A DNA stretch of 64,000 nt, taken from a phage. Where the stretch lies: sequence record PZ386972.1, one strand, 5' to 3'. Of this stretch, positions 19,750 through 32,253 are shown piece by piece. Every line of letters starts with the position of its first letter. Position 1 is the stretch's first letter. Both the position numbers and the translations under genes were made by a program. The notes below the pieces were generated by a model. The model had not been told where the DNA came from, ran no database searches, and saw only the letters and a program-made list of their open reading frames with translations.

Positions 19750-20067
19750 ATGACTTTTCATATTTTGATTGATGATGTGCGTAATCTTCACGGAATGGAC
19801 ATTATCATTCGAACCCCAGAAGCCGCTGTAGAGTTTCTGAATAAAACTGATACCACAGGCCACTTCGTTTATATGGATAATGACTTGGCTGTAGATGGTA
19901 TGGAAGGTTATCAAATTCTTCGTTTACTATTAGAATTTGGGCAGAGACCAAAGAAAGTGGTACTAGTAACCTCGAACCCAGTAGCTAAGCAAAATATGCG
20001 TAATGATTTGCTTGACTTAGGGTATAAAGAAAATCCCAATCGTGTTGAATATGATTGGCAGGAGTAA
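19750..20067 (+). CDS. hypothetical protein
   Basis: ORF track. Confidence 0.45.
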   Translation: MTFHILIDDVRNLHGMDIIIRTPEAAVEFLNKTDTTGHFVYMDNDLAVDGMEGYQILRLLLEFGQRPKKVVLVTSNPVAKQNMRNDLLDLGYKENPNRVEYDWQE

Positions 20068-20072
20068 AAAGA

Positions 20073-20522
20073 ATGAAGGCAGCTTTGCTTTTAGTAGCTG
20101 CCCTTACCTTCAGCTTTAGTAGTCAGGCATCGCACGATGCAAAAGAAATAGATTGCATTGCTAAAAATATCTATTTCGAGAGTCGTGGTGAGGGCATAAA
20201 GGGAATGACGGCGATAGCACATGTTACTAAAAACCGTGTAAACTCCGGTAAATTCCCAGATTCCTACTGTAAAGTAGTATATCAGTCTAACCAGTTCTCT
20301 TGGGTATCTAAGAGACCAAAAGTTGATAAAACTGATGAGGCTTGGCAAACCGCTAAGAATTTAGCTAGAGTGATATACTACGTTGATTTACCACAAGATC
20401 CTACACATGGAGCACTATACTTCCATAGTGGTAAAGATAAACCTTACTGGACAAAGAAGTTTAAGAAAACAACTAAGATTAAGGGACATACGTTTTATAA
20501 ACCTGTTGTCACTAAAACTTAA
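20073..20522 (+). CDS. secreted SleB-like cell-wall hydrolase
   Basis: Signal peptide MKAALLLVAALTFSFSSQA and NIYFESRGEG...AIAHVTKNRV resembling the SleB/Hydrolase_2 family. Confidence 0.55.
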   Translation: MKAALLLVAALTFSFSSQASHDAKEIDCIAKNIYFESRGEGIKGMTAIAHVTKNRVNSGKFPDSYCKVVYQSNQFSWVSKRPKVDKTDEAWQTAKNLARVIYYVDLPQDPTHGALYFHSGKDKPYWTKKFKKTTKIKGHTFYKPVVTKT

Positions 20523-21203: not shown

Positions 21204-21232
21204 TTGCTAAATACTTATAAATTCTGTATAAT
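21204..21232 (+). promoter_or_regulatory. T5-type early promoter at head of tRNA region
   Basis: AAAAATTCATTTGCTAAA...TATAAT. Confidence 0.6.
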
Positions 21233-21239: not shown

Positions 21240-22029
21240 TAAATTAGGGAACAGCGAGCCGATTACGCTGAGTGCAGAATCCCAACCGGAGCGCATTGAA
21301 TAGAGTCGGTGGGTTAGTTGTAAAACTAGTACACAGGGGGCGGCAATCCCGGTTAGTGGCTAGAACGTGTAAAATGAGGCGTCTGAAACCTCTCCCCTAA
21401 ACTCTTCTCTGATTTATAAATAGTGGGGTGTGGAAATCACTTATGTAGTAACACTGCCGTCCTAGTATAATTGGTATTATCAAGCCGTAACTGGTGGAAG
21501 ATGTAGGTTCGAATCCTACGGTCGGTAAGAACTGGATAACTGATGCTTTTAACGTAAAAGCTTCCTAGGTTAGTTGCGCACTGCCTAAACCACGCGGTAG
21601 TTGGTTCCAGACTAACCAACCAGTCTGCTGAATAGTTTTATTACGATTTAACTATGTCCAGGCTAAAGAAGAACTTTAGAAGGTATTCTAGGATAGTGAA
21701 GTTCTTTCTCCATATCGGAGTAGTTTTTCAAGCTATCCACAAAGTGGGAAATGCTGACATGAGAGATGTCACTAATGGTGCACAATAGCACAGGTAATTC
21801 GCGATAACTCCTGTTGAGTAGCAGCAAAAGGTGGGAAGTCATGACCCCAAGCCTAACCGAGTCCTCAATATACCGCAGGACATAACCACTAAGTCACCCT
21901 GACTTAAACTGGAAAATAATAGACGTTACTGTATTTTGTCTTGAAATACTTAATGAGTGAGACTTATGACTCTCCCGGTATCGTCTGTATTTTTAAGAGT
22001 TTTTACGAGAGTTCTTAAAAATACTTAAA
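21240..22029 (+). ncRNA. about 790 nt structured non-coding transcript region (candidate stable RNAs)
   Basis: No ORF of 60 aa or more on plus strand; multiple hairpins such as AAGAACTT/AAGTTCTT and TTTTTAAGAGT/GAGTTCTTAAAAA; lies between promoter and first tRNA. Confidence 0.3.
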
Positions 22030-22101
22030 CGGGGTGTAGTCTAAGGGAGAGGCAGGAGTCTTCTAAATTCCTTTATGCAGGTTCGAATCCTGTCACCTCG
22101 G
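22030..22101 (+). tRNA. tRNA-Arg (anticodon TCT)
   Basis: Acceptor CGGGGTG/CACCTCG, anticodon loop CTTCTAA, T-arm GCAGG-TTCGAAT-CCTGT, encoded CCA. Confidence 0.7.
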
Positions 22102-22138
22102 CCAATTTTATTAACTGTAACTAAAACAAAGGAAATAT

Positions 22139-23086
22139 ATGTTTAATACTAAAAATATGAAAGAACTGACTTCTGAGCAGAAAGTAATTCGTACTATTAA
22201 ACGTTGGGGTATTGGTGCTGTAGTTGGTTTAGCAGGCTTGATTCTAGCCTTTAATTCATATACTATTGTTTCTGATGGTACGGTTAAAACTCAAACATTC
22301 CTGGGTAAAGTAGATCCTAATCCAGTATTGCCGGGTTTCCATCTTGTAAACCCGTTTGCATCTTTCGATACTTTTAGTACAAAAGATATTGCTGTAAAAT
22401 TAGATAAACTTCAGGTTCCTAGTCAGGATAAGTTTAAATCCACTGTTGACCTGACTGTTATGTTGCAATTTGATGGTTCTAAGGCACCGATTAACCGTAT
22501 TAACGCAGGTACTCAGGATCAGGCACTAGACAAGTATGTAACTGAAAAATTACTGTCTACTATTCGTGAGTTTGGTAAGTCTGTACCTAAAGCACAAGAT
22601 TTGTTTGATGCTAAAATTCAGGCTCAATTGCAAACTGCAATTCAACAGGAAGTTGAAGAGTATGCGCGCCCATATGGTTACACAGTTAAGCAGGTATTCC
22701 TTCAGGATATTACCTTGCCGCCAGTAATCATGGAACAGGTACAGAATACCAAAGTTCGTGAAGAGCAAGTTAATGCTGCGAAAGCTGAACTTGCTCGCGT
22801 TGAACAGGAAGCACAGCAAAAAGTTAAACAAGCAGAAGCAGATCGTGAAGCTCGTAACAACCAAGCTATTGCTAATGAACGTGACGCAGATGCTAAACTG
22901 TACGCAGCTAAGAAAGAAGCTGAAGCTAACGCCGCATTGCAACGTACCATTACTCCTGAAATGATTCGTTGGAAACAACTGGAAGTTGAAATGATCCGTG
23001 CTCAGAAGTATCAAGGTGGTGTACCTCAGACTGTGGTAGGTACTGGCTACGATGGTCAAATGATCATGGATATGCGTAATAAATAA
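22139..23086 (+). CDS. SPFH/band-7 (HflC/prohibitin-like) membrane protein
   Basis: N-terminal TM helix, SPFH-like core, C-terminal Ala/Glu-rich coiled coil. Confidence 0.55.
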   Translation: MFNTKNMKELTSEQKVIRTIKRWGIGAVVGLAGLILAFNSYTIVSDGTVKTQTFLGKVDPNPVLPGFHLVNPFASFDTFSTKDIAVKLDKLQVPSQDKFKSTVDLTVMLQFDGSKAPINRINAGTQDQALDKYVTEKLLSTIREFGKSVPKAQDLFDAKIQAQLQTAIQQEVEEYARPYGYTVKQVFLQDITLPPVIMEQVQNTKVREEQVNAAKAELARVEQEAQQKVKQAEADREARNNQAIANERDADAKLYAAKKEAEANAALQRTITPEMIRWKQLEVEMIRAQKYQGGVPQTVVGTGYDGQMIMDMRNK

Positions 23087-23110
23087 TACCCGCATGTAAC
23101 ATCTGAAGTA

Positions 23111-23146
23111 AGCCCTGCGTTTCCTGGAGAGCGCAGGGCTTTTCTA
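23111..23146 (+). terminator. rho-independent terminator
   Basis: AGCCCTGCG...CGCAGGGCT hairpin followed by TTTTC. Confidence 0.6.
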
Positions 23147-23182
23147 TATAATGTAATTATAAAACTAACTAGGAGATTAAAC

Positions 23183-23701
23183 ATGGGTGTTGATGAATTA
23201 ACACAGCATCTTCTATCTAGAGGATTTGATGCGGATAAATATCATTGCTGGTTAAGTCCGGAAGGATGGCTAACAGTCCCGTTGTATGATTTCTCTGGGA
23301 TGTTGAGGGGCTATCAAACTTATAATCCTTCTGCTCCAAAAGGTCATGGTAAGTGTCCCTTTGAAGCTAAATATTTTACCTATTCTACTACCCAGTGTGT
23401 ATGGGGATTAGAAACTCTCAATGGAGATGAAAAAGTAGTATTGATCGCTGAATCTGTATTTAAGGCAGTTGCGTTACATAATGCTGGTTATCCAGCCCTA
23501 GCAATGTTGGGTTCTTCTCCAGGAAAAGCGTTATTAAAGCAACTGAAATTATTACCTTTTAAATTGGTAGCTGTCGGGGATAACGATCCTGCGGGTGAAA
23601 AATTTGCTAGAAAATTAAACGGCTTTGTTTCTCCTGTAGATGTGGATGAGATGTCTACAGAAAACTTGAAAAATTTTCTTGCTATGAAGCTAAATTTCTA
23701 A
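23183..23701 (+). CDS. Toprim-domain protein
   Basis: Conserved acidic residues LIAESVFKA and VGDNDPAGEKFA resemble the Toprim E and DxD motifs. Confidence 0.4.
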   Translation: MGVDELTQHLLSRGFDADKYHCWLSPEGWLTVPLYDFSGMLRGYQTYNPSAPKGHGKCPFEAKYFTYSTTQCVWGLETLNGDEKVVLIAESVFKAVALHNAGYPALAMLGSSPGKALLKQLKLLPFKLVAVGDNDPAGEKFARKLNGFVSPVDVDEMSTENLKNFLAMKLNF

Positions 23702-23707
23702 TATAAT
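23679..23707 (+). promoter_or_regulatory. T5-type promoter overlapping the 3' end of the upstream CDS
   Basis: TTGCTA-17-TATAAT ending about 15 nt before tRNA-Ser. Confidence 0.5.
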
Positions 23708-23722
23708 ATATCTTATAAATTC

Positions 23723-23808
23723 GGAAGAATAGCATAACGGTATTGCAGCAGATTGCTAATCTGTCGGTTTGAAATATAGCCTTGTGGGTTCGATTCCCAC
23801 TTCTTCCA
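23723..23808 (+). tRNA. tRNA-Ser (anticodon GCT), class II
   Basis: Acceptor GGAAGAA/TTCTTCC, anticodon loop TTGCTAA, long variable arm, T-arm GTGGG-TTCGATT-CCCAC, CCA encoded. Confidence 0.8.
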
Positions 23809-23817
23809 CCAAATTCT

Positions 23818-23892
23818 GGTTCTCAAGCTCATATGGTATGAGCACCCGGCTCATAACCGGAAGGTACGTAGGTTCGAATCCTCGGGGAGCCA
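23818..23892 (+). tRNA. tRNA with CAT anticodon (Met or Ile2)
   Basis: Acceptor GGTTCTC/GGGAGCC with wobbles, D-arm GCTC...GAGC, anticodon loop CTCATAA, TTCGAAT T-loop (imperfect T stem), CCA encoded. Confidence 0.6.
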
Positions 23893-23914
23893 CCAAATTA
23901 AATAAGGACAACTA

Positions 23915-24103
23915 ATGGAATTATTCATAGTTTCTGTTAAATTTGCACAAGATAGAGAACGTTCGGATGAGTTTAAACAAGGGTACAGACTAGTAAAGGC
24001 TACATCTGAACTCCATGCTATGGACAAAGTAGTAGACTATATGTATAATGTAGAAGATGTTTACTACGTCAATGCTTTAGAAGCCTCAAAAGTAATTAAC
24101 TAG
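23915..24103 (+). CDS. hypothetical protein
   Basis: ORF track. Confidence 0.4.
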   Translation: MELFIVSVKFAQDRERSDEFKQGYRLVKATSELHAMDKVVDYMYNVEDVYYVNALEASKVIN

Positions 24104-24112
24104 GGAGACTAT

Positions 24113-24289
24113 ATGTCTAAGTTTCAAGAACTCAAGCAAGAGCTAGAAGAGTGTGCCTGCCCTGAGTGTAGGGGAATTGGTGAAAGTTCTGATGCAGAAG
24201 CAGGAGATACTTTTTGCAATATCTGGGTTTGCCCAAATTGCAGTGGTACAGGTATTAATCCTAACTGCGGTATTTCCCCTAGATATTGA
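24113..24289 (+). CDS. small Cys-rich (zinc-ribbon-like) protein, 58 aa
   Basis: ATG 24113; CxxC...CxxC pairs (CPECRG, CPNCSG); below track cutoff. Confidence 0.35.
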   Translation: MSKFQELKQELEECACPECRGIGESSDAEAGDTFCNIWVCPNCSGTGINPNCGISPRY

Positions 24290-24400
24290 ACGAGGGTAAC
24301 ACCTGTGAAACTAAAAGATTATTATATTGGTTGGTTTGTGGGACTAGTAGTAGGATTTTCACTAGGCTATAATATGTATCAACTAATAAACTGATTACAT

Positions 24401-24474
24401 GGGGGTGTAATCGAATTGGCATAGGTACTGGACTTAAAATTCAGGTTTTGTGGGTTCGAATCCCACCACCCCTA
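24401..24474 (+). tRNA. tRNA with TAA anticodon (Leu by anticodon) but class I architecture
   Basis: Acceptor GGGGGTG/CACCCCT, anticodon stem CTGGA/TTCAG, loop CTTAAAA, 5-nt variable loop, T-arm GTGGG-TTCGAAT-CCCAC, CCA encoded; weak D stem. Confidence 0.5.
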
Positions 24475-24652
24475 CCAACTTAAGGAAATAAGATGTATAG
24501 ACATCCACCTCCGCCAACACGTCGTTCTAGAGAAGTTATCCTCATGGAATTGACGAAAAACTTCAAGGCAACTCTTGAAGATAGAGATCTAGGCACGGAT
24601 GAAGACATTGATTTTATTTGTAGACTATTAAAGATGAAACTGGAGAAACAAC

Positions 24653-24859
24653 ATGGCTAATCCTGAAATTACCGCACAACGTTTCATGCTTAAAGGCATG
24701 ATTGCTGAGGCAGGTATGACCCAAGAGGTTGCAGACTTTCATAAGCAATTTCTTGATATTATAACTCTAGCTAAAGAGACAGGAGAAAGAGAACACGGAG
24801 CAGCAATTATGGCTATATCTCTTATTAGCCTAGACTTAGCTGAAGAATCTGGAGTTTAG
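24653..24859 (+). CDS. hypothetical protein
   Basis: ORF track. Confidence 0.4.
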   Translation: MANPEITAQRFMLKGMIAEAGMTQEVADFHKQFLDIITLAKETGEREHGAAIMAISLISLDLAEESGV

Positions 24860-24889
24860 CTCCTCCAAACAGAATTTTTAAAAATGTAC

Positions 24890-24919
24890 TTGCCTTTTGC
24901 TTTAAATTTCTGGTATAAT
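24890..24919 (+). promoter_or_regulatory. T5-type early promoter
   Basis: TTGCCT-18-TATAAT. Confidence 0.55.
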
Positions 24920-24949
24920 AGTTATATAAATTGATGAAGGAGTTAACGA

Positions 24950-25225
24950 ATGCAAAATCGTGTTATAGCAACTGGTATTGAAAGTGCAATCTGTAAATCC
25001 TGGGAAGGCTGGGAAGGTGAGATTGAATGGCTTTATTTCTACGATGTAGAACTTCTGCCGGAAGTTAAAGCTAAATGTGTTGAAGCTGGCATGGCTCCAG
25101 ATGCAAAAGCTGATATTGATATTTCAATGTCTGAACTTAAAGGTCGTGTAATTACTGTTAGTGATGAGGGCGAAGAAGTTTTCGAACTTCCATTCTCCTT
25201 AACTGTCGCTCCTAAGTTCGACTAA
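24950..25225 (+). CDS. hypothetical acidic protein
   Basis: ORF track. Confidence 0.4.
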   Translation: MQNRVIATGIESAICKSWEGWEGEIEWLYFYDVELLPEVKAKCVEAGMAPDAKADIDISMSELKGRVITVSDEGEEVFELPFSLTVAPKFD

Positions 25226-25261
25226 CTAATACAGCACTGAGCAAGTTCTTTAAAATTTGAC

Positions 25262-25290
25262 TTGCTCAGTGCCATAAAACTTGATATAAT
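25262..25290 (+). promoter_or_regulatory. T5-type promoter; its -35 lies in the 3' arm of a long terminator-like inverted repeat
   Basis: CAGCACTGAGCAAG...CTTGCTCAGTGC inverted repeat at about 25232-25273, then TTGCTC-17-TATAAT. Confidence 0.55.
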
Positions 25291-25353
25291 AGTTATCTAA
25301 TTTGGAAACATATCTAAAAGTGTTTAAACTAGTATTTGAATACTTTTAAATAT

Positions 25354-25438
25354 GGGCGTTTATTCCGTAGATGGTAGCGGAGGGGATTGTAAATCCCTGG
25401 TCATTGCGACTCGAGTGGTTCGACTCCATTAACGCCCA
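25354..25438 (+). tRNA. tRNA-Tyr (anticodon GTA), class II
   Basis: Acceptor GGGCGTT/AACGCCC, anticodon loop TTGTAAA, long variable arm, T-arm GTGG-TTCGACT-CCAT, CCA encoded. Confidence 0.8.
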
Positions 25439-25459
25439 CCAAATTTAAAGGTAAAATAT

Positions 25460-25942
25460 ATGTACACTGATAGAATTGTTCAAGAAGCTGCAAACAGAGG
25501 TCTTATTGATCTGGGATCACCAGTTGATATAACTAAAGAGCTAATAACAGAGAGCCTTACGTTTGGCACAGCTAACTTTGGCCGAGATAGTAACCGTCGG
25601 TATAGCTTGAAACTATCAGCATTATCTTTTATTAAGTACAATAAGAGTATTGGAGAAAAATCAAGTTGTGGTTTTATCTACGCGATAACTAATCCAGCTT
25701 GGACTGATTATGTAAAAATTGGCATGTCTTCTGACCCAAAAACAAGATTAGCCAATTACCAGACATATTCTCCACTACGTGACTATAAGTTAATACATTG
25801 GTCATTTTGGTTTAATGCTAGAGAAGCAGAGAAAATGCTTCATAATAGCTTTCCAAAAAGAATTAATGAATGGGTAGTTTTGGACAGAAGTGTAGATGAA
25901 ACACTTGCTGATTTTAATAAACTATCTAATAAACAATTTTAA
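25460..25942 (+). CDS. T5orf172/GIY-YIG-like domain protein (homing-endonuclease-like) embedded in tRNA cluster
   Basis: GFIYAITNPAWTDYVKIGMSSDPKTRLANYQT matches the GIY-YIG-related T5orf172 signature. Confidence 0.5.
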   Translation: MYTDRIVQEAANRGLIDLGSPVDITKELITESLTFGTANFGRDSNRRYSLKLSALSFIKYNKSIGEKSSCGFIYAITNPAWTDYVKIGMSSDPKTRLANYQTYSPLRDYKLIHWSFWFNAREAEKMLHNSFPKRINEWVVLDRSVDETLADFNKLSNKQF

Positions 25943-25943
25943 T

Positions 25944-26015
25944 GCACCTATCATCTATCGGTTAGGACATCAGGTTTTCAACCTGAGAAGCTTGGTTCGA
26001 TTCCGTGTGGGTGTA
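25944..26015 (+). tRNA. tRNA-Glu (anticodon TTC)
   Basis: Acceptor GCACCTA/TGGGTGT, anticodon stem TCAGG/CCTGA, loop TTTTCAA, TTCGATT T-loop, CCA encoded. Confidence 0.7.
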
Positions 26016-26026
26016 CCAAATTCTGC

Positions 26027-26100
26027 ATTCCTAGAGTGTTACTGGACAGCATGTCGGTCTCCAAAACCGTACGGTCTAGGTTCGAGTCCTAGTAGGTTTG
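26027..26100 (+). tRNA. tRNA-Trp (anticodon CCA)
   Basis: Anticodon loop CTCCAAA, T-arm CTAGG-TTCGAGT-CCTAG, CCA encoded; acceptor stem has two U-U mismatches. Confidence 0.55.
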
Positions 26101-26109
26101 CCAAAATTT

Positions 26110-26181
26110 GCACCTTTAGCTGAGATGGATTAGCGCTTGCCTGAAGAGCTTGAGAGGTTCGTTCGATACGAACAGGGTGCA
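26110..26181 (+). tRNA. tRNA-Phe (anticodon GAA), tentative
   Basis: Acceptor GCACCTT/AGGGTGC, loop CTGAAGA, T-arm GTTCG-TTCGATA-CGAAC, CCA encoded; anticodon stem weak. Confidence 0.5.
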
Positions 26182-26201
26182 CCAAATTGAGGGAGCTGCT
26201 G

Positions 26202-26474
26202 ATGCATCCTGAAAACTTCTTTATTTACTGCGCGGATAAGTTGCTGAAACGTAGAATTAACAAAGTCTATCATTATCGTGCTAGTCAACAGCCTTATGTA
26301 TACGCTTTTGACGGTGATCACATCCCATTAGAACAACTATCTTGTGATTACATGATATTGAAGAACTTTGACGAGACAAAGATCTCAAGCGTTCATAATC
26401 GACAGAATCCCTTAACGTGGAAATATAAGAAGAAAAAGAAAGGCATCAAATTCTTAAAAAATGTAGTTGCTTAG
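26202..26474 (+). CDS. hypothetical protein
   Basis: ORF track (TTG 26187); ATG 26202 with GAGGGAG RBS preferred. Confidence 0.4.
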   Translation: MHPENFFIYCADKLLKRRINKVYHYRASQQPYVYAFDGDHIPLEQLSCDYMILKNFDETKISSVHNRQNPLTWKYKKKKKGIKFLKNVVA

Positions 26475-26495
26475 TTTCCAAAAGTTCTGTATAAT
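26467..26495 (+). promoter_or_regulatory. T5-type early promoter
   Basis: TTGCTT-17-TATAAT. Confidence 0.6.
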
Positions 26496-26523
26496 AATTA
26501 CATAAATTGAACTGGAGAAGCAA

Positions 26524-26811
26524 ATGAAACGATTAGTTAGATTTAAGTGTTGTGGTTCTGAACATATTTTCACACATCTTCGTGAATTTAAAATGTGTGA
26601 TTGTGGTAAATCAGGCTATGACTCAGGAGATGGGTTCTACACCCGTACTCTAGGGAACTTCAATGATCTAGAATTTGAAGATCTCGAAAAACAAGAAAAA
26701 GAATTATGTATCTGTTATGAATGTGGTGATCAAGATTACTACTCTAAAACAGGTAAGAAAGTGTGTAGCAATTGTGGTTCCGATCATGTAGCTACACATT
26801 ATGAAAGATAA
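26524..26811 (+). CDS. zinc-ribbon protein with four CxxC pairs
   Basis: CCGSEH, CDCG, CICYECG, CSNCG motifs. Confidence 0.45.
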   Translation: MKRLVRFKCCGSEHIFTHLREFKMCDCGKSGYDSGDGFYTRTLGNFNDLEFEDLEKQEKELCICYECGDQDYYSKTGKKVCSNCGSDHVATHYER

Positions 26812-26816
26812 TAAAC

Positions 26817-26889
26817 CGACCGTTGGCTGAATGGCTTAGGCGAAGGATTGCAAATCCTTTTTATGTGAGTTCAAATCTCATGCGGTCGT
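26817..26889 (+). tRNA. tRNA-Cys (anticodon GCA)
   Basis: Acceptor CGACCGT/GCGGTCG, anticodon stem AAGGA/TCCTT, loop TTGCAAA, T-arm GTGAG-TTCAAAT-CTCAT, CCA encoded. Confidence 0.75.
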
Positions 26890-26892
26890 CCA

Positions 26893-27044
26893 ATTTGCTG
26901 AAAGAATTGTTAAATCAATTCAGGCACGCGTAGGAACACTGTCTCCGTAATTGAAAGATGAGACACGGTTTGGAGAGGTATGCCGCTACACGCTACGGTG
27001 CTAACTCCGTCTAGGTGAAAATCCTAGTCAGCAATATAAATTTA
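26893..27044 (+). ncRNA. about 150 nt structured spacer between tRNA-Cys and tRNA-Asn (candidate small RNA)
   Basis: Hairpins such as GTCTC...GAGAC; no ORF. Confidence 0.25.
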
Positions 27045-27124
27045 GGGTCGTTAGCCAAGCGGTTTGGCGGTGGACTGTTAATCCATGTCGAAAGACAACG
27101 TAGGTTCGAATCCTACACGGCCCG
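27045..27124 (+). tRNA. tRNA with GTT anticodon (Asn) and unusually long 13-nt variable arm
   Basis: Acceptor GGGTCGT/ACGGCCC, D-arm GCCA...TGGC, anticodon stem GTGGA/TCCAT, loop CTGTTAA, variable GTCGAAAGACAAC, TTCGAAT T-loop, CCA encoded. Confidence 0.65.
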
Positions 27125-27229
27125 CCAAATTCTGTGTAGAGTTAAGTAAACCGGTAGCCAACCAGCTATCATTGCTGACATCGAATTCAGCCACAGATAC
27201 CATTTTCATTAATAACTGAGGAAACAAGC

Positions 27230-27415
27230 ATGTCCAAGAATGTAATTGCACAGTTAGAAGTTCATCGTGATAACACAGCTAATAACATTAAGTGCCGACA
27301 AAAAGATATTGAAGCTCAAAAGGCTGATCTTTTAATGAGTATTCGAGAGCTTAATGTACGAAAAGAGTTTCTTAAAGAACTTAATGCAGCTATTGAAAAA
27401 CTCAAAGCTGAGTAA
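27230..27415 (+). CDS. small coiled-coil protein
   Basis: ORF track. Confidence 0.35.
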   Translation: MSKNVIAQLEVHRDNTANNIKCRQKDIEAQKADLLMSIRELNVRKEFLKELNAAIEKLKAE

Positions 27416-27424
27416 ATGAATTAT

Positions 27425-27498
27425 GCGACCGGGGCTGGCTTGGTAATGGTACTCCCCTGTCACGGGAGGGAATGTGGGTTCGAATCCCATCGGTCGCG
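27425..27498 (+). tRNA. tRNA-Asp (anticodon GTC)
   Basis: Acceptor GCGACCG/CGGTCGC, anticodon stem CTCCC/GGGAG, loop CTGTCAC, T-arm GTGGG-TTCGAAT-CCCAT, CCA encoded. Confidence 0.8.
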
Positions 27499-27678
27499 CC
27501 AAATAAGGTAGGTTAGCTATGGAACGTAGGGAGTTTACTCCGGAAGAGATAGAGCAGATAAAAGAATCTGCTATGAAAAATGCTAGAATATCTCTGTCAC
27601 TGGAAGGTATCATTATAAGTGATGTAAACTTTGAAAAAATCAAAGCCATAGCTGATGAACTGGAAAAAGTAATTTAAT

Positions 27679-27751
27679 ACATCCATAGCTCAATGGTTAG
27701 AGCTACCGCCTCTTAAGCGGAGGGTTCTAGGTTCAAGTCCTAGTGGGTGTA
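27679..27751 (+). tRNA. tRNA-Lys (anticodon CTT)
   Basis: Acceptor ACATCCA/TGGGTGT, D-arm GCTC...GAGC, loop CTCTTAA, T-arm CTAGG-TTCAAGT-CCTAG, CCA encoded. Confidence 0.65.
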
Positions 27752-27780
27752 CCAAACTAAACTAGCACGAGAAATATGCT

Positions 27781-28128
27781 ATGATTAATGCTAAAGAAGA
27801 GTTGTTACTTGCCCTAAAGAATACTAAGTCTGAAGTTAAGTGTATTAAGATAGAATTCGGTTATTATGGGAACAAAGAAGTTTGGATATTACCCGTAGGT
27901 TATACAGAAAAAGATATTGAAGATTTTCTAAATAATCTAGACTTCAAATATGATTCTGGTTTCGGTGGACAATTGCTTTACGGTAACGTATGGTTTACTG
28001 ATGGAACTTGGTTAGAGCGTGGTGAATATGATGGTTCTGAATGGTGGGAGTATAAGACTACACCAGCAATCCCAGAAGAATGCCGAACAATTAATGGTGA
28101 AGTAGATCGTACTTTACTATTAAATTAA
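27781..28128 (+). CDS. hypothetical protein
   Basis: ORF track. Confidence 0.45.
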   Translation: MINAKEELLLALKNTKSEVKCIKIEFGYYGNKEVWILPVGYTEKDIEDFLNNLDFKYDSGFGGQLLYGNVWFTDGTWLERGEYDGSEWWEYKTTPAIPEECRTINGEVDRTLLLN

Positions 28129-28250
28129 CAAAATTTCAGTGCAGAACACGGAGCTAGCAATTCGGAAGTGCTGACTCATGATAGGCTGCCTATGTACTTG
28201 CGAAGCGGTCGTGTCCAAGACTCGGACTCTTGCACTGAAAACAATCAAAC

Positions 28251-28368
28251 ATTCTAGCGTGGTTGATGGGGAAACCAGCTTGGCTAGGGCAGAAGCTCGT
28301 TCGATTCGAGTGAAAGAATGGTTCTCGTAAGTCCGCACAAGTGATAACAGGTTCGAGTCCTGTCTAGA
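28251..28368 (+). ncRNA. 118-nt tRNA-like RNA: perfect 7-bp acceptor-like stem and canonical T-arm, no encoded CCA
   Basis: 5' ATTCTAG pairs with 3' CTAGAAT; T-arm ACAGG-TTCGAGT-CCTGT; internal second TTCGATT hairpin. Confidence 0.35.
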
Positions 28369-28383
28369 ATGACACTATAAAGT

Positions 28384-28494
28384 TTACTTATTATGTAGGT
28401 TCCGATAGATCGGCGGGTCTATTCTGGCATTTAAGAGAGGTCTCGCAAACTTCTTTGTCAGCCGTGGGGTTGATAGCCTCCAGGTGGCCTACAC
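28384..28494 (+). ncRNA. about 110-nt structured RNA closed by terminal helix
   Basis: 5' TGTAGGT pairs with 3' GCCTACA; internal hairpins; no ORF. Confidence 0.3.
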
Positions 28495-28520
28495 AATAAG
28501 TAAATTTATTAAAAATTCAT

Positions 28521-28549
28521 TTGCTATTCTGCTTAATTATCTGTATAAT
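28521..28549 (+). promoter_or_regulatory. T5-type early promoter
   Basis: TTGCTA-17-TATAAT. Confidence 0.6.
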
Positions 28550-28579
28550 ATATTTTATAAAGTGAGTTAACAAAATTAA

Positions 28580-28652
28580 CAGTGCGTAGCGCAGTTGGTA
28601 GCGTGGGAGCCTTGGATGCTTCGGGTCGCAGGTTCGAGTCCTGCCGCACTGA
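28580..28652 (+). tRNA. tRNA-Pro (anticodon TGG)
   Basis: Acceptor CAGTGCG/CGCACTG, D-arm GCGC...GCGT, loop CTTGGAT, T-arm GCAGG-TTCGAGT-CCTGC, CCA encoded. Confidence 0.75.
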
Positions 28653-28661
28653 CCAAACAAT

Positions 28662-28736
28662 TGCGGGTTAGATCTCTGGTAGAGATCGCTAGTCTCATAA
28701 GCTAGAAAGAGGTAGGTTCGATTCCTGCACCCGCTT
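28662..28736 (+). tRNA. tRNA with CAT anticodon (Met or Ile2)
   Basis: D-arm GATC...GATC, anticodon stem CTAGT/GCTAG, loop CTCATAA, TTCGATT T-loop, CCA encoded; 1-72 U-U mismatch. Confidence 0.6.
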
Positions 28737-28759
28737 CCATTTTAATAGAGGATTTCGAA

Positions 28760-28927
28760 ATGAAAGTATTTCGATTAGTAGTAAGTGACAAACGTTTAGG
28801 TAAGAATACCTCAAAATCCTTACTTGCTCATTATGGAAAAGATGAGAAAGAAGTAATGGCGGAGTTTGGGATTAATCACCCTTACTTGAAAGTTCACTCT
28901 ATTAAAGAAGTATATAATGGTTACTAA
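28760..28927 (+). CDS. small hypothetical protein (55 aa)
   Basis: ATG with GAGGA RBS between two tRNAs; below track cutoff. Confidence 0.3.
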   Translation: MKVFRLVVSDKRLGKNTSKSLLAHYGKDEKEVMAEFGINHPYLKVHSIKEVYNGY

Positions 28928-28928
28928 T

Positions 28929-29004
28929 AGATCGCTAGCTCAATAGGTTTAGTAGCATCCGACTTTTAATCGGAAGGTTCTGGGTTCGAGTCCCAGGCGA
29001 TCTA
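28929..29004 (+). tRNA. tRNA-Lys (anticodon TTT)
   Basis: Acceptor AGATCGC/GCGATCT, anticodon stem TCCGA/TCGGA, loop CTTTTAA, T-arm CTGGG-TTCGAGT-CCCAG, CCA encoded. Confidence 0.8.
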
Positions 29005-29026
29005 CCAATTTCAAGAAAAACGCAGT

Positions 29027-29054
29027 TGCTTGATGCTTAATTTCTTGTTATAAT
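29027..29054 (+). promoter_or_regulatory. T5-type early promoter
   Basis: TTGCTT-16-TATAAT. Confidence 0.55.
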
Positions 29055-29104
29055 ATTTATATAAATTGATGAGGATTTCTCCTCATCATAGTTCACTAAG
29101 GTAT

Positions 29105-29268
29105 TAGCTCGACCTAGGACTGGCTGCCAAAAAGCACGATCCCTACGATTCGGGAGAAGTTCTAGATTAGTCCACTAGATTCAGCGGCAACTGAATAGTG
29201 TATCGGGTTTGCGAGATGACGCGGTTCCTTCCGCTCGAAGCGAAGGTGCTGTAGTTACGCCGAGCTAA
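29105..29268 (+). ncRNA. about 165-nt structured RNA closed by TAGCTCG/CGAGCTA helix
   Basis: Long-range complementary 7-mers plus internal hairpins; no ORF. Confidence 0.3.
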
Positions 29269-29292
29269 TAGCCTTAGTAAACTAAAGAATTT

Positions 29293-29368
29293 GGGGAATG
29301 GGTCTGCATGGAGTGGACACCTCGCTTGCACCGAGGACATCAGAACGGTTCGATTCCGTTATTCTCCA
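29293..29368 (+). tRNA. tRNA-Ala (anticodon TGC)
   Basis: Acceptor GGGGAAT/ATTCTCC with G3-U70 wobble, anticodon stem CCTCG/CGAGG, loop CTTGCAC, T-arm AACGG-TTCGATT-CCGTT, CCA encoded. Confidence 0.75.
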
Positions 29369-29376
29369 CCAAATAC

Positions 29377-29450
29377 GCGTGATTGATGGAATTGGCATAC
29401 ATACCGTCCTTAGAAGTCGGGTTTTGAGGGTTCGAATCCCTTGTCACGCA
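29377..29450 (+). tRNA. tRNA with TAG anticodon (Leu by anticodon) but class I architecture
   Basis: Acceptor GCGTGAT/GTCACGC, loop CTTAGAA, 5-nt variable loop, T-arm GAGGG-TTCGAAT-CCCTT, discriminator A, CCA encoded; weak D stem. Confidence 0.5.
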
Positions 29451-29453
29451 CCA

Positions 29454-29565
29454 AATTTGATGGTCAGAGTAAATTAAACCTACTATCTCGGTTGAGCTGT
29501 TTTAATGGGTTCGAATCCCAGCGAGGCGTAACTGCCTGGCGTGATAGAGGCATCATCTTATTATT
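29454..29565 (+). ncRNA. about 110-nt segment containing an orphan T-arm-like hairpin (tRNA-like fragment or small RNA)
   Basis: TGGG-TTCGAAT-CCCA hairpin with no matching acceptor stem or CCA; AGGCGTAACTGCCT hairpin. Confidence 0.25.
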
Positions 29566-29653
29566 GGAAGAGCAAATCGAATTGGCGACGAAAACCGCTT
29601 GGAAAGTGGCTGACTGGTAAAACGGCTTGAGAGTTCAAATCTCTCCTCTTCCG
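29566..29653 (+). tRNA. tRNA-Ser (anticodon GGA), class II
   Basis: Acceptor GGAAGAG/CTCTTCC, loop TTGGAAA, long variable arm, T-arm GAGAG-TTCAAAT-CTCTC, CCA encoded. Confidence 0.7.
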
Positions 29654-29668
29654 CCAAACAATTTATAT

Positions 29669-29760
29669 GGTAGGTCAATCCAATGGCTGGCGCTGGACTC
29701 CGACTTGAAATCGGTTGATCGTAGTGATACGGTGTAAGGGTTCGATCCCCTTACCTACCT
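29669..29760 (+). tRNA. tRNA-Ser (anticodon TGA), class II
   Basis: Acceptor GGTAGGT/ACCTACC, loop CTTGAAA, long variable arm, T-arm AAGGG-TTCGATC-CCCTT, CCA encoded. Confidence 0.7.
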
Positions 29761-29764
29761 CCAA

Positions 29765-29910
29765 GTCTTGAAGTATGCCGGAATCGGTAGACGGGGCTGC
29801 CTAAAAGGTTTATAGGGAACATCCACTCCCTACAACATACCTCATAAAGCGGCTGAGATAAATGGTCTATCTCGTGAAGGTTCAAGTCCTTCTGCTTCTT
29901 GATACATCTA
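29765..29910 (+). ncRNA. about 145-nt structured segment with D-arm-like and T-arm-like hairpins but no complete cloverleaf
   Basis: GAGATA-AATGGTC-TATCTC and GAAGG-TTCAAGT-CCTTC hairpins; no CCA. Confidence 0.25.
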
Positions 29911-30014
29911 TGGCTCAAAGTGTAACGGTGCTATTTGATGCTCTTAGTAAGACTTTCCCGACATGCGTTCGGGAGTAAGCTGCTAAGGCTAGAATAGAAG
30001 AGTTTCTGAGAGCC

Positions 30015-30134
30015 GCCACAATTGAAAATTCGTACTCGTCTTGAGCTGCGTGCAATAGGAGATAACTTGATTAGTATTCTAGAACATGCTAATTGAGGAT
30101 GGTTTCGCTAACCCTGCGAGTTTTCAATTGTGGC
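30015..30134 (+). ncRNA. structured element closed by a perfect 14-bp helix whose 3' strand overlaps the 5' end of tRNA-His
   Basis: GCCACAATTGAAAA at about 30015-30028 is the exact reverse complement of TTTTCAATTGTGGC at about 30121-30134. Confidence 0.4.
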
Positions 30135-30203
30135 TATATCATAATTGGTTAATGATCCTGATTGTGAATCAGGCCTATGTGGATTCGAATTCCACTAGCC
30201 ACC
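30130..30203 (+). tRNA. tRNA-His (anticodon GTG)
   Basis: Acceptor GTGGCTA/TAGCCAC, anticodon stem CCTGA/TCAGG, loop TTGTGAA, T-arm GTGGA-TTCGAAT-TCCAC, discriminator C, CCA encoded. Confidence 0.8.
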
Positions 30204-30231
30204 CCAAATTAACTTAAATAGGAAATAAAAT

Positions 30232-30429
30232 ATGGCTGATTTCTGCAAACAATGCTCCATTGATATGTGGGGCAGAGATACTGGTGATCTTTCTGGTTTG
30301 ATTACAGAAGCTGAGGTCAAAGAAGGTTATGGTGCAGTTGTGATTTGCGAAGGATGCGGAGTTATTCGAGTAGATCATGAAGGCAAACGTTTAGAAGAAC
30401 AGGAAAACTTAGGAGAAACAAATGAGTAA
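30232..30429 (+). CDS. small Cys-containing protein
   Basis: ORF track. Confidence 0.4.
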   Translation: MADFCKQCSIDMWGRDTGDLSGLITEAEVKEGYGAVVICEGCGVIRVDHEGKRLEEQENLGETNE

Positions 30430-30658
30430 TGCTTTAATTAGTGAAATTATGTTAACACGTCTTGCAGAACTGCAAACTCTTCGAGATGAATCTCAGAATA
30501 ACTTAGCCTACCATAAACAGATGGTAGATACTCTTACTACTCGTATTGATACTTACGAGCGTGATATTGCAGCATTACAAGCTCTTTTCTCTGTATCAGC
30601 ACCAGATACGTTAGAACAGCCTGCTGTATCTCAGCCAGTAGAAACAGCATCTAGCTAA
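30422..30658 (+). CDS. hypothetical coiled-coil protein
   Basis: ORF track; overlaps upstream stop. Confidence 0.4.
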   Translation: MSNALISEIMLTRLAELQTLRDESQNNLAYHKQMVDTLTTRIDTYERDIAALQALFSVSAPDTLEQPAVSQPVETASS

Positions 30659-30667
30659 TAGCATTCT

Positions 30668-30740
30668 TGGGATGTAGATCAATTGGCAGATCGTCGGCCT
30701 CTGACTCCGAAGGTTCCACGTTCGATCCGTGGCATCCCAG
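30668..30740 (+). tRNA. tRNA-Gln (anticodon CTG)
   Basis: Acceptor TGGGATG/CATCCCA, D-arm GATC...GATC, loop CTCTGAC, T-arm CCACG-TTCGATC-CGTGG, discriminator G, CCA encoded. Confidence 0.7.
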
Positions 30741-30749
30741 CCAAACAAT

Positions 30750-30822
30750 TGGAGAGTAGTGTAACGGTTAGCACAACGGCCTTTGACTCCGTTAATGGTA
30801 GGTTCGATTCCTCCTTCTCCAG
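30750..30822 (+). tRNA. tRNA-Gln (anticodon TTG)
   Basis: Acceptor TGGAGAG/TTCTCCA, loop CTTTGAC, TTCGATT T-loop, discriminator G, CCA encoded. Confidence 0.65.
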
Positions 30823-30833
30823 CCAAGTAATAA

Positions 30834-30906
30834 GCGGTTAAGCACACGGGTTGTGTCGCAGGCCTTCCAAGCCTCGCTGAGTAGGGTTCGATTCCCTCTA
30901 GCCGCT
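30834..30906 (+). tRNA. tRNA-Gly (anticodon TCC)
   Basis: Acceptor GCGGTTA/TAGCCGC, loop CTTCCAA, TTCGATT T-loop, CCA encoded. Confidence 0.6.
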
Positions 30907-30925
30907 CCAACTTTAAGGAAACATT

Positions 30926-31177
30926 ATGCACGTTTTTGAGTTTCGTAATAAAAGTACCGATAAACGAGTTATTGTTATTGGAGAAACATACCGAGCATAC
31001 GAACAAACTGACGGCTCTGTTATCCTAAACGATGAGAAAGGAGGTTTTAGCTTTTATCCAGAAGAACCTTATGAAGAGTTTCGAAAACAATTTAACCTAG
31101 ACTGGAGAAAGCATTTAAACACTGTTGCTTCATCTGTAGTATTGCCAACTACCAGTACTGTACTCTCTAATGGCTGA
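30926..31177 (+). CDS. hypothetical protein
   Basis: ORF track. Confidence 0.4.
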   Translation: MHVFEFRNKSTDKRVIVIGETYRAYEQTDGSVILNDEKGGFSFYPEEPYEEFRKQFNLDWRKHLNTVASSVVLPTTSTVLSNG

Positions 31178-31342
31178 TAACCTAAAAGTCAAGATCGATA
31201 AACAAAAGAAACGTGTAGAAGTAGAGATTGGTGAAGAACGTGTAGCCTTCACCTTTGAATTTCTACAACAAATGGCAATGGCGGTTATGACTGATAAGTC
31301 TCCTGTTATTGAAAAAGAAATCCCGTTGAAATAACGGGTTCT

Positions 31343-31426
31343 GCTGGGTTGGCAGAATGGTTGAATGCACCTGATTTGTAATCAGGAGGAGTAATCCCGT
31401 TGCAGGTTCGAATCCTGTGCCCAGCA
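31343..31426 (+). tRNA. tRNA with TGT anticodon (Thr) and long 15-nt variable arm
   Basis: Acceptor GCTGGGT/GCCCAGC, anticodon stem CCTGA/TCAGG, loop TTTGTAA, T-arm GCAGG-TTCGAAT-CCTGT, CCA encoded. Confidence 0.55.
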
Positions 31427-31611
31427 CCAACTTAAGGACTATTATGTTTAAATTATTAGTAGTTATCTGGTATAGTCAATCAAATAGAGCGAATACCTCC
31501 CACGTTATAGACTTTAATACTAAAAATGAAGCTGAAAAAGCATATTCTAATTTAATAGAACGTAATAAAGAATCTCGTAGTATAGTTTATGAAGTGACTA
31601 AACTTTATTAA
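31417..31611 (+). CDS. small hypothetical protein (track start overlaps tRNA 3' end; true start probably the internal ATG)
   Basis: ORF track. Confidence 0.3.
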   Translation: MPSTNLRTIMFKLLVVIWYSQSNRANTSHVIDFNTKNEAEKAYSNLIERNKESRSIVYEVTKLY

Positions 31612-31619
31612 AAATTCAT

Positions 31620-31648
31620 TTGCTTTCTCTCTTATTTATTGTTATAAT
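31620..31648 (+). promoter_or_regulatory. T5-type early promoter
   Basis: TTGCTT-17-TATAAT. Confidence 0.6.
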
Positions 31649-31678
31649 ATTTATATAAATTAATGAGAGGGAAGCCAA

Positions 31679-31972
31679 ATGAAACGTTATCTTTCTGTTG
31701 TGTTCCAAACTGGTGGTCAACGCTATACCTATGAATTTCCTGGCTCTTGGAAGATCAAAGAGGGTGATCAAGTAGTAGTGTTAACACCGCGTGAGGGTTT
31801 CAAGGTAGTAACGGTTAAGCAAGTATTTCCAAAAGAGCATGAACCAGCTAAAGGCATTCGCTATAAGATGATTCATGGTGTAGTTCGTCAAGTACCACGA
31901 GCGGAAGTCGAAATCAAAGTAGATAAAGATGGTAGACTTAAATATACCTCTTGCTTAGATGAGCTGCTATAA
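31679..31972 (+). CDS. hypothetical protein
   Basis: ORF track, GAGGGAAG RBS. Confidence 0.45.
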   Translation: MKRYLSVVFQTGGQRYTYEFPGSWKIKEGDQVVVLTPREGFKVVTVKQVFPKEHEPAKGIRYKMIHGVVRQVPRAEVEIKVDKDGRLKYTSCLDELL

Positions 31973-32178: not shown

Positions 32179-32179
32179 T

Positions 32180-32253
32180 GCTTCGGTAGCTTAGCGATCT
32201 AAAGCACTCGGCTGATAACCGAGAGATCGGGGGTTTAAATCCCTCCCGGAGTA
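32180..32253 (+). tRNA. tRNA-Ile (anticodon GAT) with atypical TTTAAAT T-loop
   Basis: Acceptor GCTTCGG/CCGGAGT, anticodon stem CTCGG/CCGAG, loop CTGATAA, T-arm GGGGG-TTTAAAT-CCCTC, CCA encoded. Confidence 0.7.

Follow-up and report, generated by a model that had tools for sequence, protein, structure and literature searches.

An SPFH/prohibitin-type membrane protein encoded in the tRNA region of a T5-like phage

The 64,000-nucleotide stretch of phage DNA analyzed here (PZ386972.1, hereafter the window) belongs to a T5-like phage (Tequintavirus) and carries, at positions 22139 to 23086 of the plus strand, the orthologue of the T5 gene T5p078. With a probability of roughly 0.55, we read its product as a prohibitin/HflC-type SPFH protein that forms a cage over patches of the host inner membrane and serves the phage as an accessory fitness factor. 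The SPFH assignment is correct but already known, T5 and its relatives having been so annotated since 2004; public T5-family annotation has listed the gene with its band 7/SPFH domain, as well as the guess of an FtsH modulator, for about twenty years.

A constrained gene in the tRNA region and its annotation

The original prediction had placed a 315-aa protein at 22139-23086, and an open reading frame of 315 codons plus stop, with an ATG start on the plus strand, was found at exactly these coordinates. A Shine-Dalgarno motif, AAGGA (22129 to 22133, plus strand), can be read from the sequence with the ATG 5 nt downstream, and the chance expectation for an open frame of 315 codons in the window is about 5e-5. 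Assignment as an SPFH/prohibitin-type CDS is based on the ORF, Pfam, tblastn against phage records, the T5 annotation, dN/dS and an exact-sequence look-up. Since dN/dS amounts to 0.011 in comparison to T5 and 0.07 in comparison to Epseptimavirus (overall, 0.011-0.11), this is a constrained protein-coding gene, and it is under strong purifying selection. Antisense ORFs inside it (22550-23095 and others) were set aside as side effects of a coding strand rich in Ala, Glu and Gln codons. The earlier observation is confirmed, and the gene is real.

The only promoter-like site on the plus strand upstream of the SPFH gene is TTGCTA-17-TATAAT (21204 to 21232), a putative sigma-70 promoter matching 10 of 12 positions, which lies at the position equivalent to T5 promoter P16-17. 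In the T5 annotation, P16-17 precedes RNAX, tRNA-Arg and T5p078. The window likewise contains a non-coding leader with short ORFs only (21240 to 22029, plus strand), equivalent by the T5 annotation to 'RNAX', a misc_RNA of 719 nt directly before tRNA-Arg; a tRNA-like element lies within the leader at 21456-21527 (Rfam tRNA, 35.5 bits). The tRNA-Arg gene (anticodon tct; 22030 to 22104, plus strand) is located 34 nt upstream of the SPFH start codon and, because this gap is too small for a separate promoter, the SPFH message probably arises from a transcript shared with the tRNA. The transcription unit, which holds one CDS, is closed 24 nt past the SPFH stop codon by an intrinsic terminator consisting of a 13-bp GC-rich hairpin followed by a T-run (23110 to 23146, plus strand). 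The gene had been described as lying between tRNA-Arg and tRNA-Ser, which is only approximately the case: tRNA-Arg does lie immediately upstream, but a 172-aa Toprim ORF (23183-23701) intervenes before tRNA-Ser(gct), which starts at 23723. No second SPFH gene was found in the window, where tblastn with the protein returned the protein itself only, and none of the nine neighboring ORFs matched NfeD.

Over all 315 residues, the window protein is 99.4% identical to T5p078 (AAU09419.1 / AAX12012.1). In T5 as in the window, the SPFH gene directly follows tRNA-Arg in the tRNA region, and both share the terminator hairpin and a nick-site sequence downstream of the gene; the bidirectional terminator ter1 is annotated near the hairpin in T5. 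The reverse-strand genes T5p075-077 and ter1 separate the SPFH and Toprim genes in T5, whereas in the window both genes are adjacent. The exact protein sequence is already present in NCBI and UniRef, in more than 20 phages, and among the public names for the identical sequence are 'Protease regulator' and 'Modulator of FtsH protease'. None of the NCBIfam naming models matched.

Two further names in circulation would imply different functions. In the T5 record AY734508, T5p078 is annotated as band 7/COG0330 'membrane protease subunits, stomatin/prohibitin homologs' and bears the product name 'putative membrane protease'. Taken literally, this would make the protein a membrane protease itself, and a weak match to PHROG 11227 'protease' (E=0.001), limited to residues 185-288 of the coiled-coil region, points the same way. 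However, the name traces to the title of COG0330, whose members are regulators and not enzymes; no peptidase family was matched in Pfam or NCBIfam, and SPFH core and helices account for the whole chain in the structure model and the fold search. We regard proteolysis by the protein itself as extremely improbable and the T5 label as unsupported. The same degree of improbability applies to a lipoprotein, the name used in many phage records, RefSeq included, and in PHROG 200, the family to which the protein belongs and which it matches at E=1.7e-86. The window protein has not a single Cys and therefore no lipobox, which makes acylation impossible, and 20 of 23 aligned family members are likewise devoid of Cys. 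The RefSeq/PHROG label 'lipoprotein' is thus refuted for the window protein.

Domain architecture, structural relatives and predicted topology

The profile search on which the original prediction depended returned an SPFH match: in Pfam, PF01145 (Band_7) covers residues 52-225 (E=2e-17; 64.2 bits versus a cut-off of 23.6). An AlphaFold2 model (pLDDT 78) consists of a helix (residues 12-39), an alpha/beta core (41-192), a long helix (195-270) and a further helix (273-290); it is a model of a monomer with a C-tail of low confidence and says nothing on cage formation. Foldseek aligned this model at probability 1.0 over about 265-305 columns with erlin, prohibitin, HflK/C, stomatin, QmcA and flotillin. 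E-values against cage protomers were 2.6e-14 for erlin, 4.6e-13 for prohibitin, 1.3e-11 for HflK/C, 1.8e-11 for stomatin and 3.5e-10 for QmcA. Profile, structure prediction and fold searches together fully back the proposed membrane scaffold of SPFH/band-7 type, including its N-terminal TM helix and its coiled coil.

The chain can be divided into five segments, all encoded on the plus strand. A basic N-terminal tail (residues 1-22; 22139 to 22204) is predicted to be cytoplasmic by its charge count. It is followed by a single predicted transmembrane signal-anchor helix (residues 23-43; 22205 to 22267), for which hydropathy and the model helix 12-39 provide the evidence. The hydropathy maximum falls on residues 25-43 (mean Kyte-Doolittle 1.79), residues ~23-43 are the sole strongly hydrophobic stretch, and the hydrophobic 19-mer is kept in all 23 aligned family members. 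Residues 44-194 (22268 to 22720) form the SPFH alpha/beta core, recognized by profile, conservation, model and fold, with the invariant motif VPSQDK at 93-98. Model, fold and composition show residues 195-270 (22721 to 22948) to be one long helix, rich in Ala, Glu and Gln, which corresponds to the CC1 wall helix in SPFH cages; 24% of its 76 residues are Ala, 14% Glu and 12% Gln. Finally, conservation and the model delimit residues 273-315 (22955 to 23083), comprising a second, CC2-like helix (273-290) and a conserved, Gly-rich C-terminal tail (GGVPxTVVG..Y.G.MIMDMR). By analogy with the structures of HflK/C, prohibitin and QmcA, this last segment is a candidate cap-forming region.

The charges flanking the TM helix are distributed unevenly, with 6 K/R and 2 D/E before it and 2 of each kind after it, and most of the 23 aligned family members have the same bias. 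According to the positive-inside rule, this predicts an N-in topology with a periplasmic SPFH dome. The top fold matches erlin, prohibitin and HflK/C are all type II, N-in proteins.

In a phmmer search of the window protein against all PDB chains (E<=1), QmcA was the best match (E=1.8e-6), followed by prohibitin-2 (E=8.6e-5), and the PH stomatin was found as well. The QmcA match stems largely from the coiled coil. HflK or HflC was absent from the matches of this search, though HflK/C chains were present in the library. Prohibitin hence takes second rank in both comparisons, after QmcA by sequence and after erlin by fold. A cellular relative, 36-41% identical to the phage protein, has human prohibitin-1 as its best PDB match, near full length and with E=2.1e-10, and a chromosomal copy in Morganella matches HflC weakly (E=1.5e-4). 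Judged by these sequence relationships, the nearest solved relatives are prohibitin and HflC.

The prohibitins (PHB1/PHB2 and p-prohibitins) and the phage protein have the same layout of a short N-tail, N-terminal anchor, SPFH core, wall helix and second helix. The p-prohibitins correspond to SPFH4 of Hinderhofer et al. 2009 (PMC2636767), and the phage gene resembles this type in being single and without a detected NfeD gene at its locus. Its SPFH domain is predicted to be periplasmic, as that of mitochondrial prohibitins faces the intermembrane space. Identity to prohibitins, however, is only about 16-19%, and whereas these are PHB1/PHB2 hetero-oligomers, the virus-encoded protein is presumably a homo-oligomer, given its one gene. 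HflK/HflC, which form a cage around FtsH, align structurally with the phage protein over the full length (Foldseek; 7vhq 1.3e-11, 7wi3 7e-10), and their N-in, periplasmic orientation is the one that charge bias predicts for it. They differ in being a paralogue pair that builds a hetero-oligomer, while the phage protein is encoded by a single gene whose neighboring ORFs are not SPFH, and it is shorter than HflK. QmcA forms a homo-oligomeric cage (26 QmcA-sequence chains in 8z5g), but QmcA-YbbJ combines a stomatin-type SPFH1 protein with an NfeD partner, and no NfeD was found beside the phage gene or its cellular relatives. QmcA is also said to face the cytoplasm, reportedly on the evidence of Chiba and colleagues in 2006, opposite to the orientation predicted for the phage protein.

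Distribution, mobility and dispensability

Phage SPFH proteins had been considered uncommon, a view at odds with the records for this family. Relatives of the window protein were found by tblastn in 726 of 50,697 phage records, and about 30 SPFH structure clusters, giant viruses included, occur in a viral structure library. At E<=1e-10, relatives amount to 337 clusters. For Tequintavirus and Epseptimavirus, ~430-440 records contain the SPFH gene (at least 89% identity) versus ~440 for the A1 gene (at least 90%), and on this count the gene can be regarded as near-universal in the two genera. It is also present in T4-like (Straboviridae), Grimontviridae and Vibrio phages, where its differing neighborhoods indicate that it moved singly. 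In Slopekvirus it directly follows the lysis-inhibition genes rI and rI.-1, and in Aeromonas phage 31 it lies 3 kb from rI.

We rejected two larger mobile units. A cassette of the SPFH gene with an NMN adenylyltransferase gene, shared between Epseptimavirus and Slopekvirus, was dismissed, since the respective downstream genes align at 27% identity across 33 residues and show no relationship as one unit. We also discarded a general module of SPFH and Toprim genes moving together, the Toprim gene not being adjacent in T4-like, Grimontviridae, Vibrio-phage and Epseptimavirus contexts. According to the T5 annotation, the SPFH gene falls inside the T5st0 deletion, and it is absent from BF23 (PMC12752171); it is therefore dispensable in the laboratory. 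BF23 lacks the Toprim gene along with the SPFH gene.

Among 91 neighbor proteins at 23 loci of cellular relatives, no family occurred at more than five, and neither FtsH nor NfeD was found next to these 23 genes. With no recurrent partner, the cellular gene context names no client. Morganella and Providencia appear to have taken a phage copy into their chromosomes. The copies in Morganella and Methylophagaceae are flanked by housekeeping genes, and we rejected a prophage origin for them.

Proposed role and alternative functions

In the mechanism that we favor, the gene would be expressed early, from a strong sigma-70 promoter through the non-coding RNA, tRNA-Arg and the SPFH gene to the hairpin terminator. 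The protein would enter the host inner membrane via its N-terminal signal-anchor, so that the basic tail remains cytoplasmic and the SPFH domain points into the periplasm, and may then self-assemble into a cage as other SPFH proteins do; with a single SPFH gene available, this cage would be homo-oligomeric. In such a cage, the SPFH domains would rest on the membrane, the long helices would form the wall, and the second helix and C-tail would close the top. The dome would enclose a patch of inner membrane together with a membrane protein within it. By analogy with HflK/C and prohibitins, the FtsH protease is the most obvious, though speculative, candidate for this client, and as a result the proteostasis or stability of the infected cell's membrane may be altered. 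As an accessory fitness factor, the gene would be selected in nature and unneeded for plaques on laboratory E. coli.

The FtsH/HflKC-like modulation or microdomain role suggested in the original prediction is plausible by analogy. T5 is strictly lytic and the classical HflKC/FtsH/lambda-CII logic is therefore inapplicable; we know of no T5 substrate of FtsH. A full-text search of the published literature found no experimental study of phage SPFH proteins, those of T5 type included, and nothing specific on the T5 transcriptome; a phage transposon-mutagenesis preprint does not mention T5.

Alternatively, the SPFH assembly could act as a membrane stabilizer or repair device that keeps the inner membrane energized and intact from DNA injection to programmed lysis without regulating any protease. 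It would then work like a flotillin/PspA-type envelope-stress device and lengthen the productive period. The phage protein resembles flotillin and stomatin scaffolds in fold and architecture, although in the fold search flotillins come behind prohibitin, erlin and HflK/C. The location of the gene in an early transcription unit would suit this role, as would its position beside rI and rI.-1 in Slopekvirus; against the latter, accessory genes tend to collect in the tk-rI region of T4-like phages, and the Aeromonas phage 31 copy lies at some distance from rI. Further support comes from cellular systems: the link of PspA to the membrane requires an SPFH protein in Bacillus subtilis (PMC8581546), and a role in stress tolerance and respiration is described for E. 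coli HflKC (PMC10434171, PMC12005517). Altogether, we judge this membrane-stabilizer reading to be unlikely.

Somewhat lower still do we place a role in conflict, in which a periplasm-facing cage would mediate superinfection exclusion or, as an anti-defense factor, neutralize a membrane-acting abortive-infection effector. An accessory gene that laboratory hosts do not require of the phage, but that is highly conserved and passes horizontally between unrelated virulent phages, follows a pattern typical of conflict genes. The T5 tRNA region in which it resides also encodes a proven counter-defense element, the tRNA-Lys that neutralizes PARIS (PMC11464382). On the other hand, dN/dS values of 0.01-0.1 are unlike the fast evolution common in arms-race proteins, and the cellular relatives occur in housekeeping contexts. 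No family of the PADLOC defense models matched at E<=0.1, and the literature search found no link of SPFH proteins to exclusion or anti-defense.

Beyond the cage reading favored above, the protein may, though we consider this improbable, be a portable single-gene module for host takeover, i.e., a cage on the periplasmic side that takes hold of one particular inner-membrane machine of the host. Its client could be FtsH, or a membrane-acting defense or lysis effector. If true, this would explain both the exchange and the strong constraint of the gene among unrelated virulent phages (T5-like, T4-like, Grimontviridae and Vibrio) as well as the apparently phage-derived chromosomal copies in Morganella and Providencia, and it would make this the first SPFH cage encoded by a virus whose client is defined. 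For SPFH biology, a conserved, mobile and laboratory-dispensable gene in many large virulent phages, with counterparts in giant viruses, poses a modest, well-posed question. T5 is genetically tractable and natural deletions are available in st0 and BF23, making it a convenient system for establishing what a viral SPFH cage encloses.

The SPFH gene and its identity

The ORF listing of the window contains a 315-aa reading frame at 22139..23086 on the + strand, which begins with ATG and is preceded at a distance of 5 nt by an AAGGA Shine-Dalgarno motif (22129-22133). Given the base composition, the chance expectation for a stop-free run of 315 codons in the window is ~5e-5, and the ORF predicted at exactly these coordinates is real. 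In the ARAGORN prediction, tRNA-Arg(tct) occupies 22030-22104 and ends 34 nt upstream of the ATG, while tRNA-Ser(gct) lies at 23723-23811; both belong to a cluster of 22 tRNAs extending from 22030 to 32428. The gene thus lies inside the tRNA cluster, as had been proposed, but is not directly followed by tRNA-Ser, since a 172-aa Toprim-domain ORF intervenes (23183-23701, + strand; Toprim_2, E=2.2e-5).

Residues 1-22 of the protein are basic (six K/R, two D/E), residues ~23-43 form its sole strongly hydrophobic stretch, and residues 195-270 contain 24% Ala, 14% Glu and 12% Gln, in agreement with the N-terminal TM helix and Ala/Glu-rich helical part described previously. Membership of the SPFH/band-7 family, which was to be checked by profile search, was confirmed by a match of residues 52-225 to Pfam Band_7 (PF01145; E=2e-17, 64.2 bits versus a cut-off of 23.6). 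The protein also matched PHROG 200 (E=1.7e-86), while searches of NCBIfam and PADLOC yielded no match. An AlphaFold2 model, computed from an alignment of 23 family members, reached a mean pLDDT of 78. In it, a helix (12-39) leads into an alpha/beta core (41-192), which is followed by one helix of 76 residues (195-270), a second one at 273-290 and a tail of low confidence. In agreement with the profile match, Foldseek aligned this model to protomers of solved SPFH cages in the PDB with probability 1.0 over ~265-305 columns: erlin1/2 (E 2.6e-14), PHB1/2 (4.6e-13), HflK/C (7vhq; 1.3e-11), stomatin (1.8e-11) and QmcA (3.5e-10), with weaker matches to flotillin and major vault protein. The SPFH family assignment is secure, and the original prediction had classified a real gene correctly.

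At the nucleotide level the window matches Tequintavirus genomes with 95-98% identity and hence derives from a T5-like phage. Its SPFH protein is 99.4% identical to T5p078 of T5, leaving hardly any doubt that the two are orthologues. In GenBank AY734508, T5p078 is annotated as a 'putative membrane protease' of the band 7 family (PF01145) with stomatin/prohibitin homologs (COG0330), and an exact-sequence look-up showed that the identical protein has entries from numerous phages, among them AHN83509.1, under the labels 'Protease regulator', 'Modulator of FtsH protease', 'Band 7 domain-containing protein', 'putative transmembrane protein' or 'lipoprotein'. Both the observation and its interpretation were therefore already public; this is a long-annotated gene, common in its phage group, with nothing unexpected in its sequence. 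Among the deposited labels, we rejected 'lipoprotein', as the whole protein contains no Cys, and 'protease', based on the Pfam and NCBIfam searches.

Distribution, selection and cellular relatives

The protein had been regarded as an uncommon type in phages. This is contradicted by tblastn, which detected relatives in 726 phage records, and by ~30 further SPFH clusters, giant viruses included, in a viral structure library. Copies of at least 89% identity occur in ~430-440 records, all Tequintavirus or Epseptimavirus. As the family-specific A1 gene is found at >=90% identity in about as many (~440), the SPFH gene is near-universal in these genera. More distant copies are carried by T4-like Slopekvirus and Karamvirus phages of Klebsiella, Cronobacter and Enterobacter (73-78%), Grimontviridae (Proteus phage P59, ~75%), Aeromonas T4-like phages (~61%) and Vibrio phages (31-41%). 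The gene follows tRNA-Arg in Epseptimavirus and RtcB plus an ATPase in P59. In the tk-rI accessory region of T4-like phages it lies immediately 3' of the lysis-inhibition gene rI and rI.-1 in Klebsiella phage Matisse (L063, 4239-5900) and after tk in Aeromonas phage 31 (L064, 3987-5837). The neighbourhood differs each time, which indicates that SPFH moves as a single gene.

Nei-Gojobori dN/dS was 0.011 against T5 (dS 0.37; two amino-acid changes), 0.07 against Epseptimavirus and ~0.1 against the T4-like and P59 copies; the gene is under strong purifying selection. It is nevertheless dispensable for plaques on laboratory hosts: the 8.2-kb segment that T5st0, a viable mutant, has lost is exactly AY734508, and with it T5p078; in BF23 the band 7 and 'primase' genes are naturally missing (PMC12752171); and further viable T5 tRNA-region deletions are in use (PMC11464382).

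When 1.84 billion representative proteins were searched with a profile, 337 clusters passed E<=1e-10 and 1907 passed E<=1e-3; we read this as a bounded subfamily rather than the whole SPFH superfamily. Among species-representative genomes, copies of 57-59% identity are present in Morganella and Providencia chromosomes (L003-L015; e.g., L014, 7968-8939) and copies of 31-41% in Methylococcaceae, Methylophagaceae, Desulfocapsaceae and other MAGs. These copies are flanked by housekeeping genes, and neither prophage genes nor NfeD were found beside them. In Morganella, SPFH follows decarboxylase, permease, TetR and ADH genes, in this order, and precedes HlyD and an ABC exporter; in a Methylophagaceae chromosome it follows trpFBA, accD and folC and precedes an FAD oxidoreductase gene. 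The 91 neighbour proteins from 23 loci included no family with more than five occurrences. In a neighbour-joining tree computed without support values, the Morganellaceae copies fall inside the phage clade, and those from the remaining bacteria group apart in a clade of their own. Together with conservation of the chromosomal gene across Morganellaceae species, this suggests a phage-to-host transfer that became fixed in the host. Copies of 73-100% identity, T4-like or T5-like, also occur in several phage-sized 'bacterial' records (~111 or ~178 kb), such as the 'Flagellimonas marina' contig (L002; 178,077 bp) and WP_ entries from Citrobacter and Enterococcus; these are almost certainly phage DNA in bacterial assemblies.

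The best match of a cellular-clade protein was human prohibitin-1 (E=2.1e-10, residues 22-248 versus 23-243), and the Morganella copy matched HflC (E=1.5e-4). The window protein itself matched QmcA (E=1.8e-6), mostly via the coiled coil, and prohibitin-2 (E=8.6e-5). The single gene, the lack of NfeD and the short basic tail ahead of a single anchor helix agree with one another, and on these features we provisionally place the family closest to the prohibitin/HflC branch. Prokaryotic members have been termed 'p-prohibitins' (SPFH4) and predicted to face the periplasm (Hinderhofer et al., PMC2636767).

Predicted assembly and possible roles

By analogy with the SPFH cages of HflK/C-FtsH, prohibitin, erlin, QmcA and stomatin, we consider the protein to be a cage-forming membrane scaffold, with a probability of about 0.7. 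Its copies would self-assemble into a dome, with SPFH domains on the membrane and the 76-residue helices as wall; the cap would consist of the second helix together with the conserved C-tail GGVPxTVVG..Y.G.MIMDMR. Following the positive-inside rule, the N-terminus would be cytoplasmic and the dome, somewhat less surely, periplasmic. This predicted orientation is that of HflK/C and, topologically, that of prohibitins and erlins.

What such a cage would enclose or support is a more tentative matter. FtsH, the obvious candidate by analogy with HflK/C and the prohibitins, is a speculative and rather unlikely client: a sequence-level search against PDB chains gave no match of the window protein to HflK/C, T5 is a strictly lytic phage, and the gene context gives no hint of FtsH or any other client. 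A part in membrane stabilisation or lysis timing appears similarly doubtful; the tk-rI placement in T4-like phages hints, if only weakly, at a connection with the control of lysis or of the envelope. Exclusion or anti-defence is the least likely of these roles. Our literature search found no function test for a T5p078-type or any other phage SPFH protein, and the remaining interest of the gene lies here.

Transcription unit and neighbouring genes

The lone promoter-like site upstream on the + strand (TTGCTA-17-TATAAT, 21204-21232) corresponds to T5 promoter P16-17, annotated ahead of 'RNAX' (719 nt), tRNA-Arg and T5p078. The 34-nt gap behind tRNA-Arg is too short to hold a promoter, and a GC-rich terminator-like hairpin of 13 bp with a T-run (23110-23146), kept in T5, follows its stop codon. 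We infer that tRNA and mRNA are transcribed together early on, and that tRNA processing would create the 5' end of the mRNA. The T5 record also lists a 'major DNA single-chain interruption' 44 nt past the T5p078 stop codon. It aligns to 23130/23131 of the window (GGAGA^GCGCAGGG), fully conserved and within the terminator hairpin (23110-23141); one of T5's characteristic genome nicks thus probably lies right behind the gene.

In T5 (L001, 2169-3825), the SPFH and Toprim genes are separated by the bidirectional terminator ter1 and by three genes on the reverse strand (T5p075-077), whereas in the window the two genes are adjacent (spacer 23087-23182). The Toprim ORF has its own promoter-like site (23125-23152) and is missing from BF23 together with the SPFH gene. 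Its relatives are annotated as 'DNA primase(-like)', for which 172 aa is far too short. A Toprim protein amid tRNA genes is of note, since AriB, the effector of the PARIS defence, is a Toprim tRNA nuclease (PMC11464382).

Two tRNA matches were reported by Rfam only, at 21456-21527 (+; 35.5 bits) in the non-coding RNAX-equivalent stretch 21240-22029, and at 23818-23892 (+; 40.3 bits) just past tRNA-Ser, the latter corresponding to T5 tRNA-Ile2. Just upstream of the tRNA region, two + strand ORFs overlap by 13 nt at their ends: one (19750-20067) encodes a cREC_REC 'cyclic-phosphate processing receiver' domain (PF20274, E=3.8e-15), and the product of the other (20055-20522) is a cell-wall hydrolase of the SleB type (PF07486, E=2.4e-25) whose N-terminus resembles a signal peptide. 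Between tRNA-Tyr and tRNA-Glu, an ORF at 25460-25942 (+) carries T5orf172/MUG113 domains (E ~1e-8), which lead us to suspect that a mobile gene for a nuclease has inserted into the tRNA cluster here.
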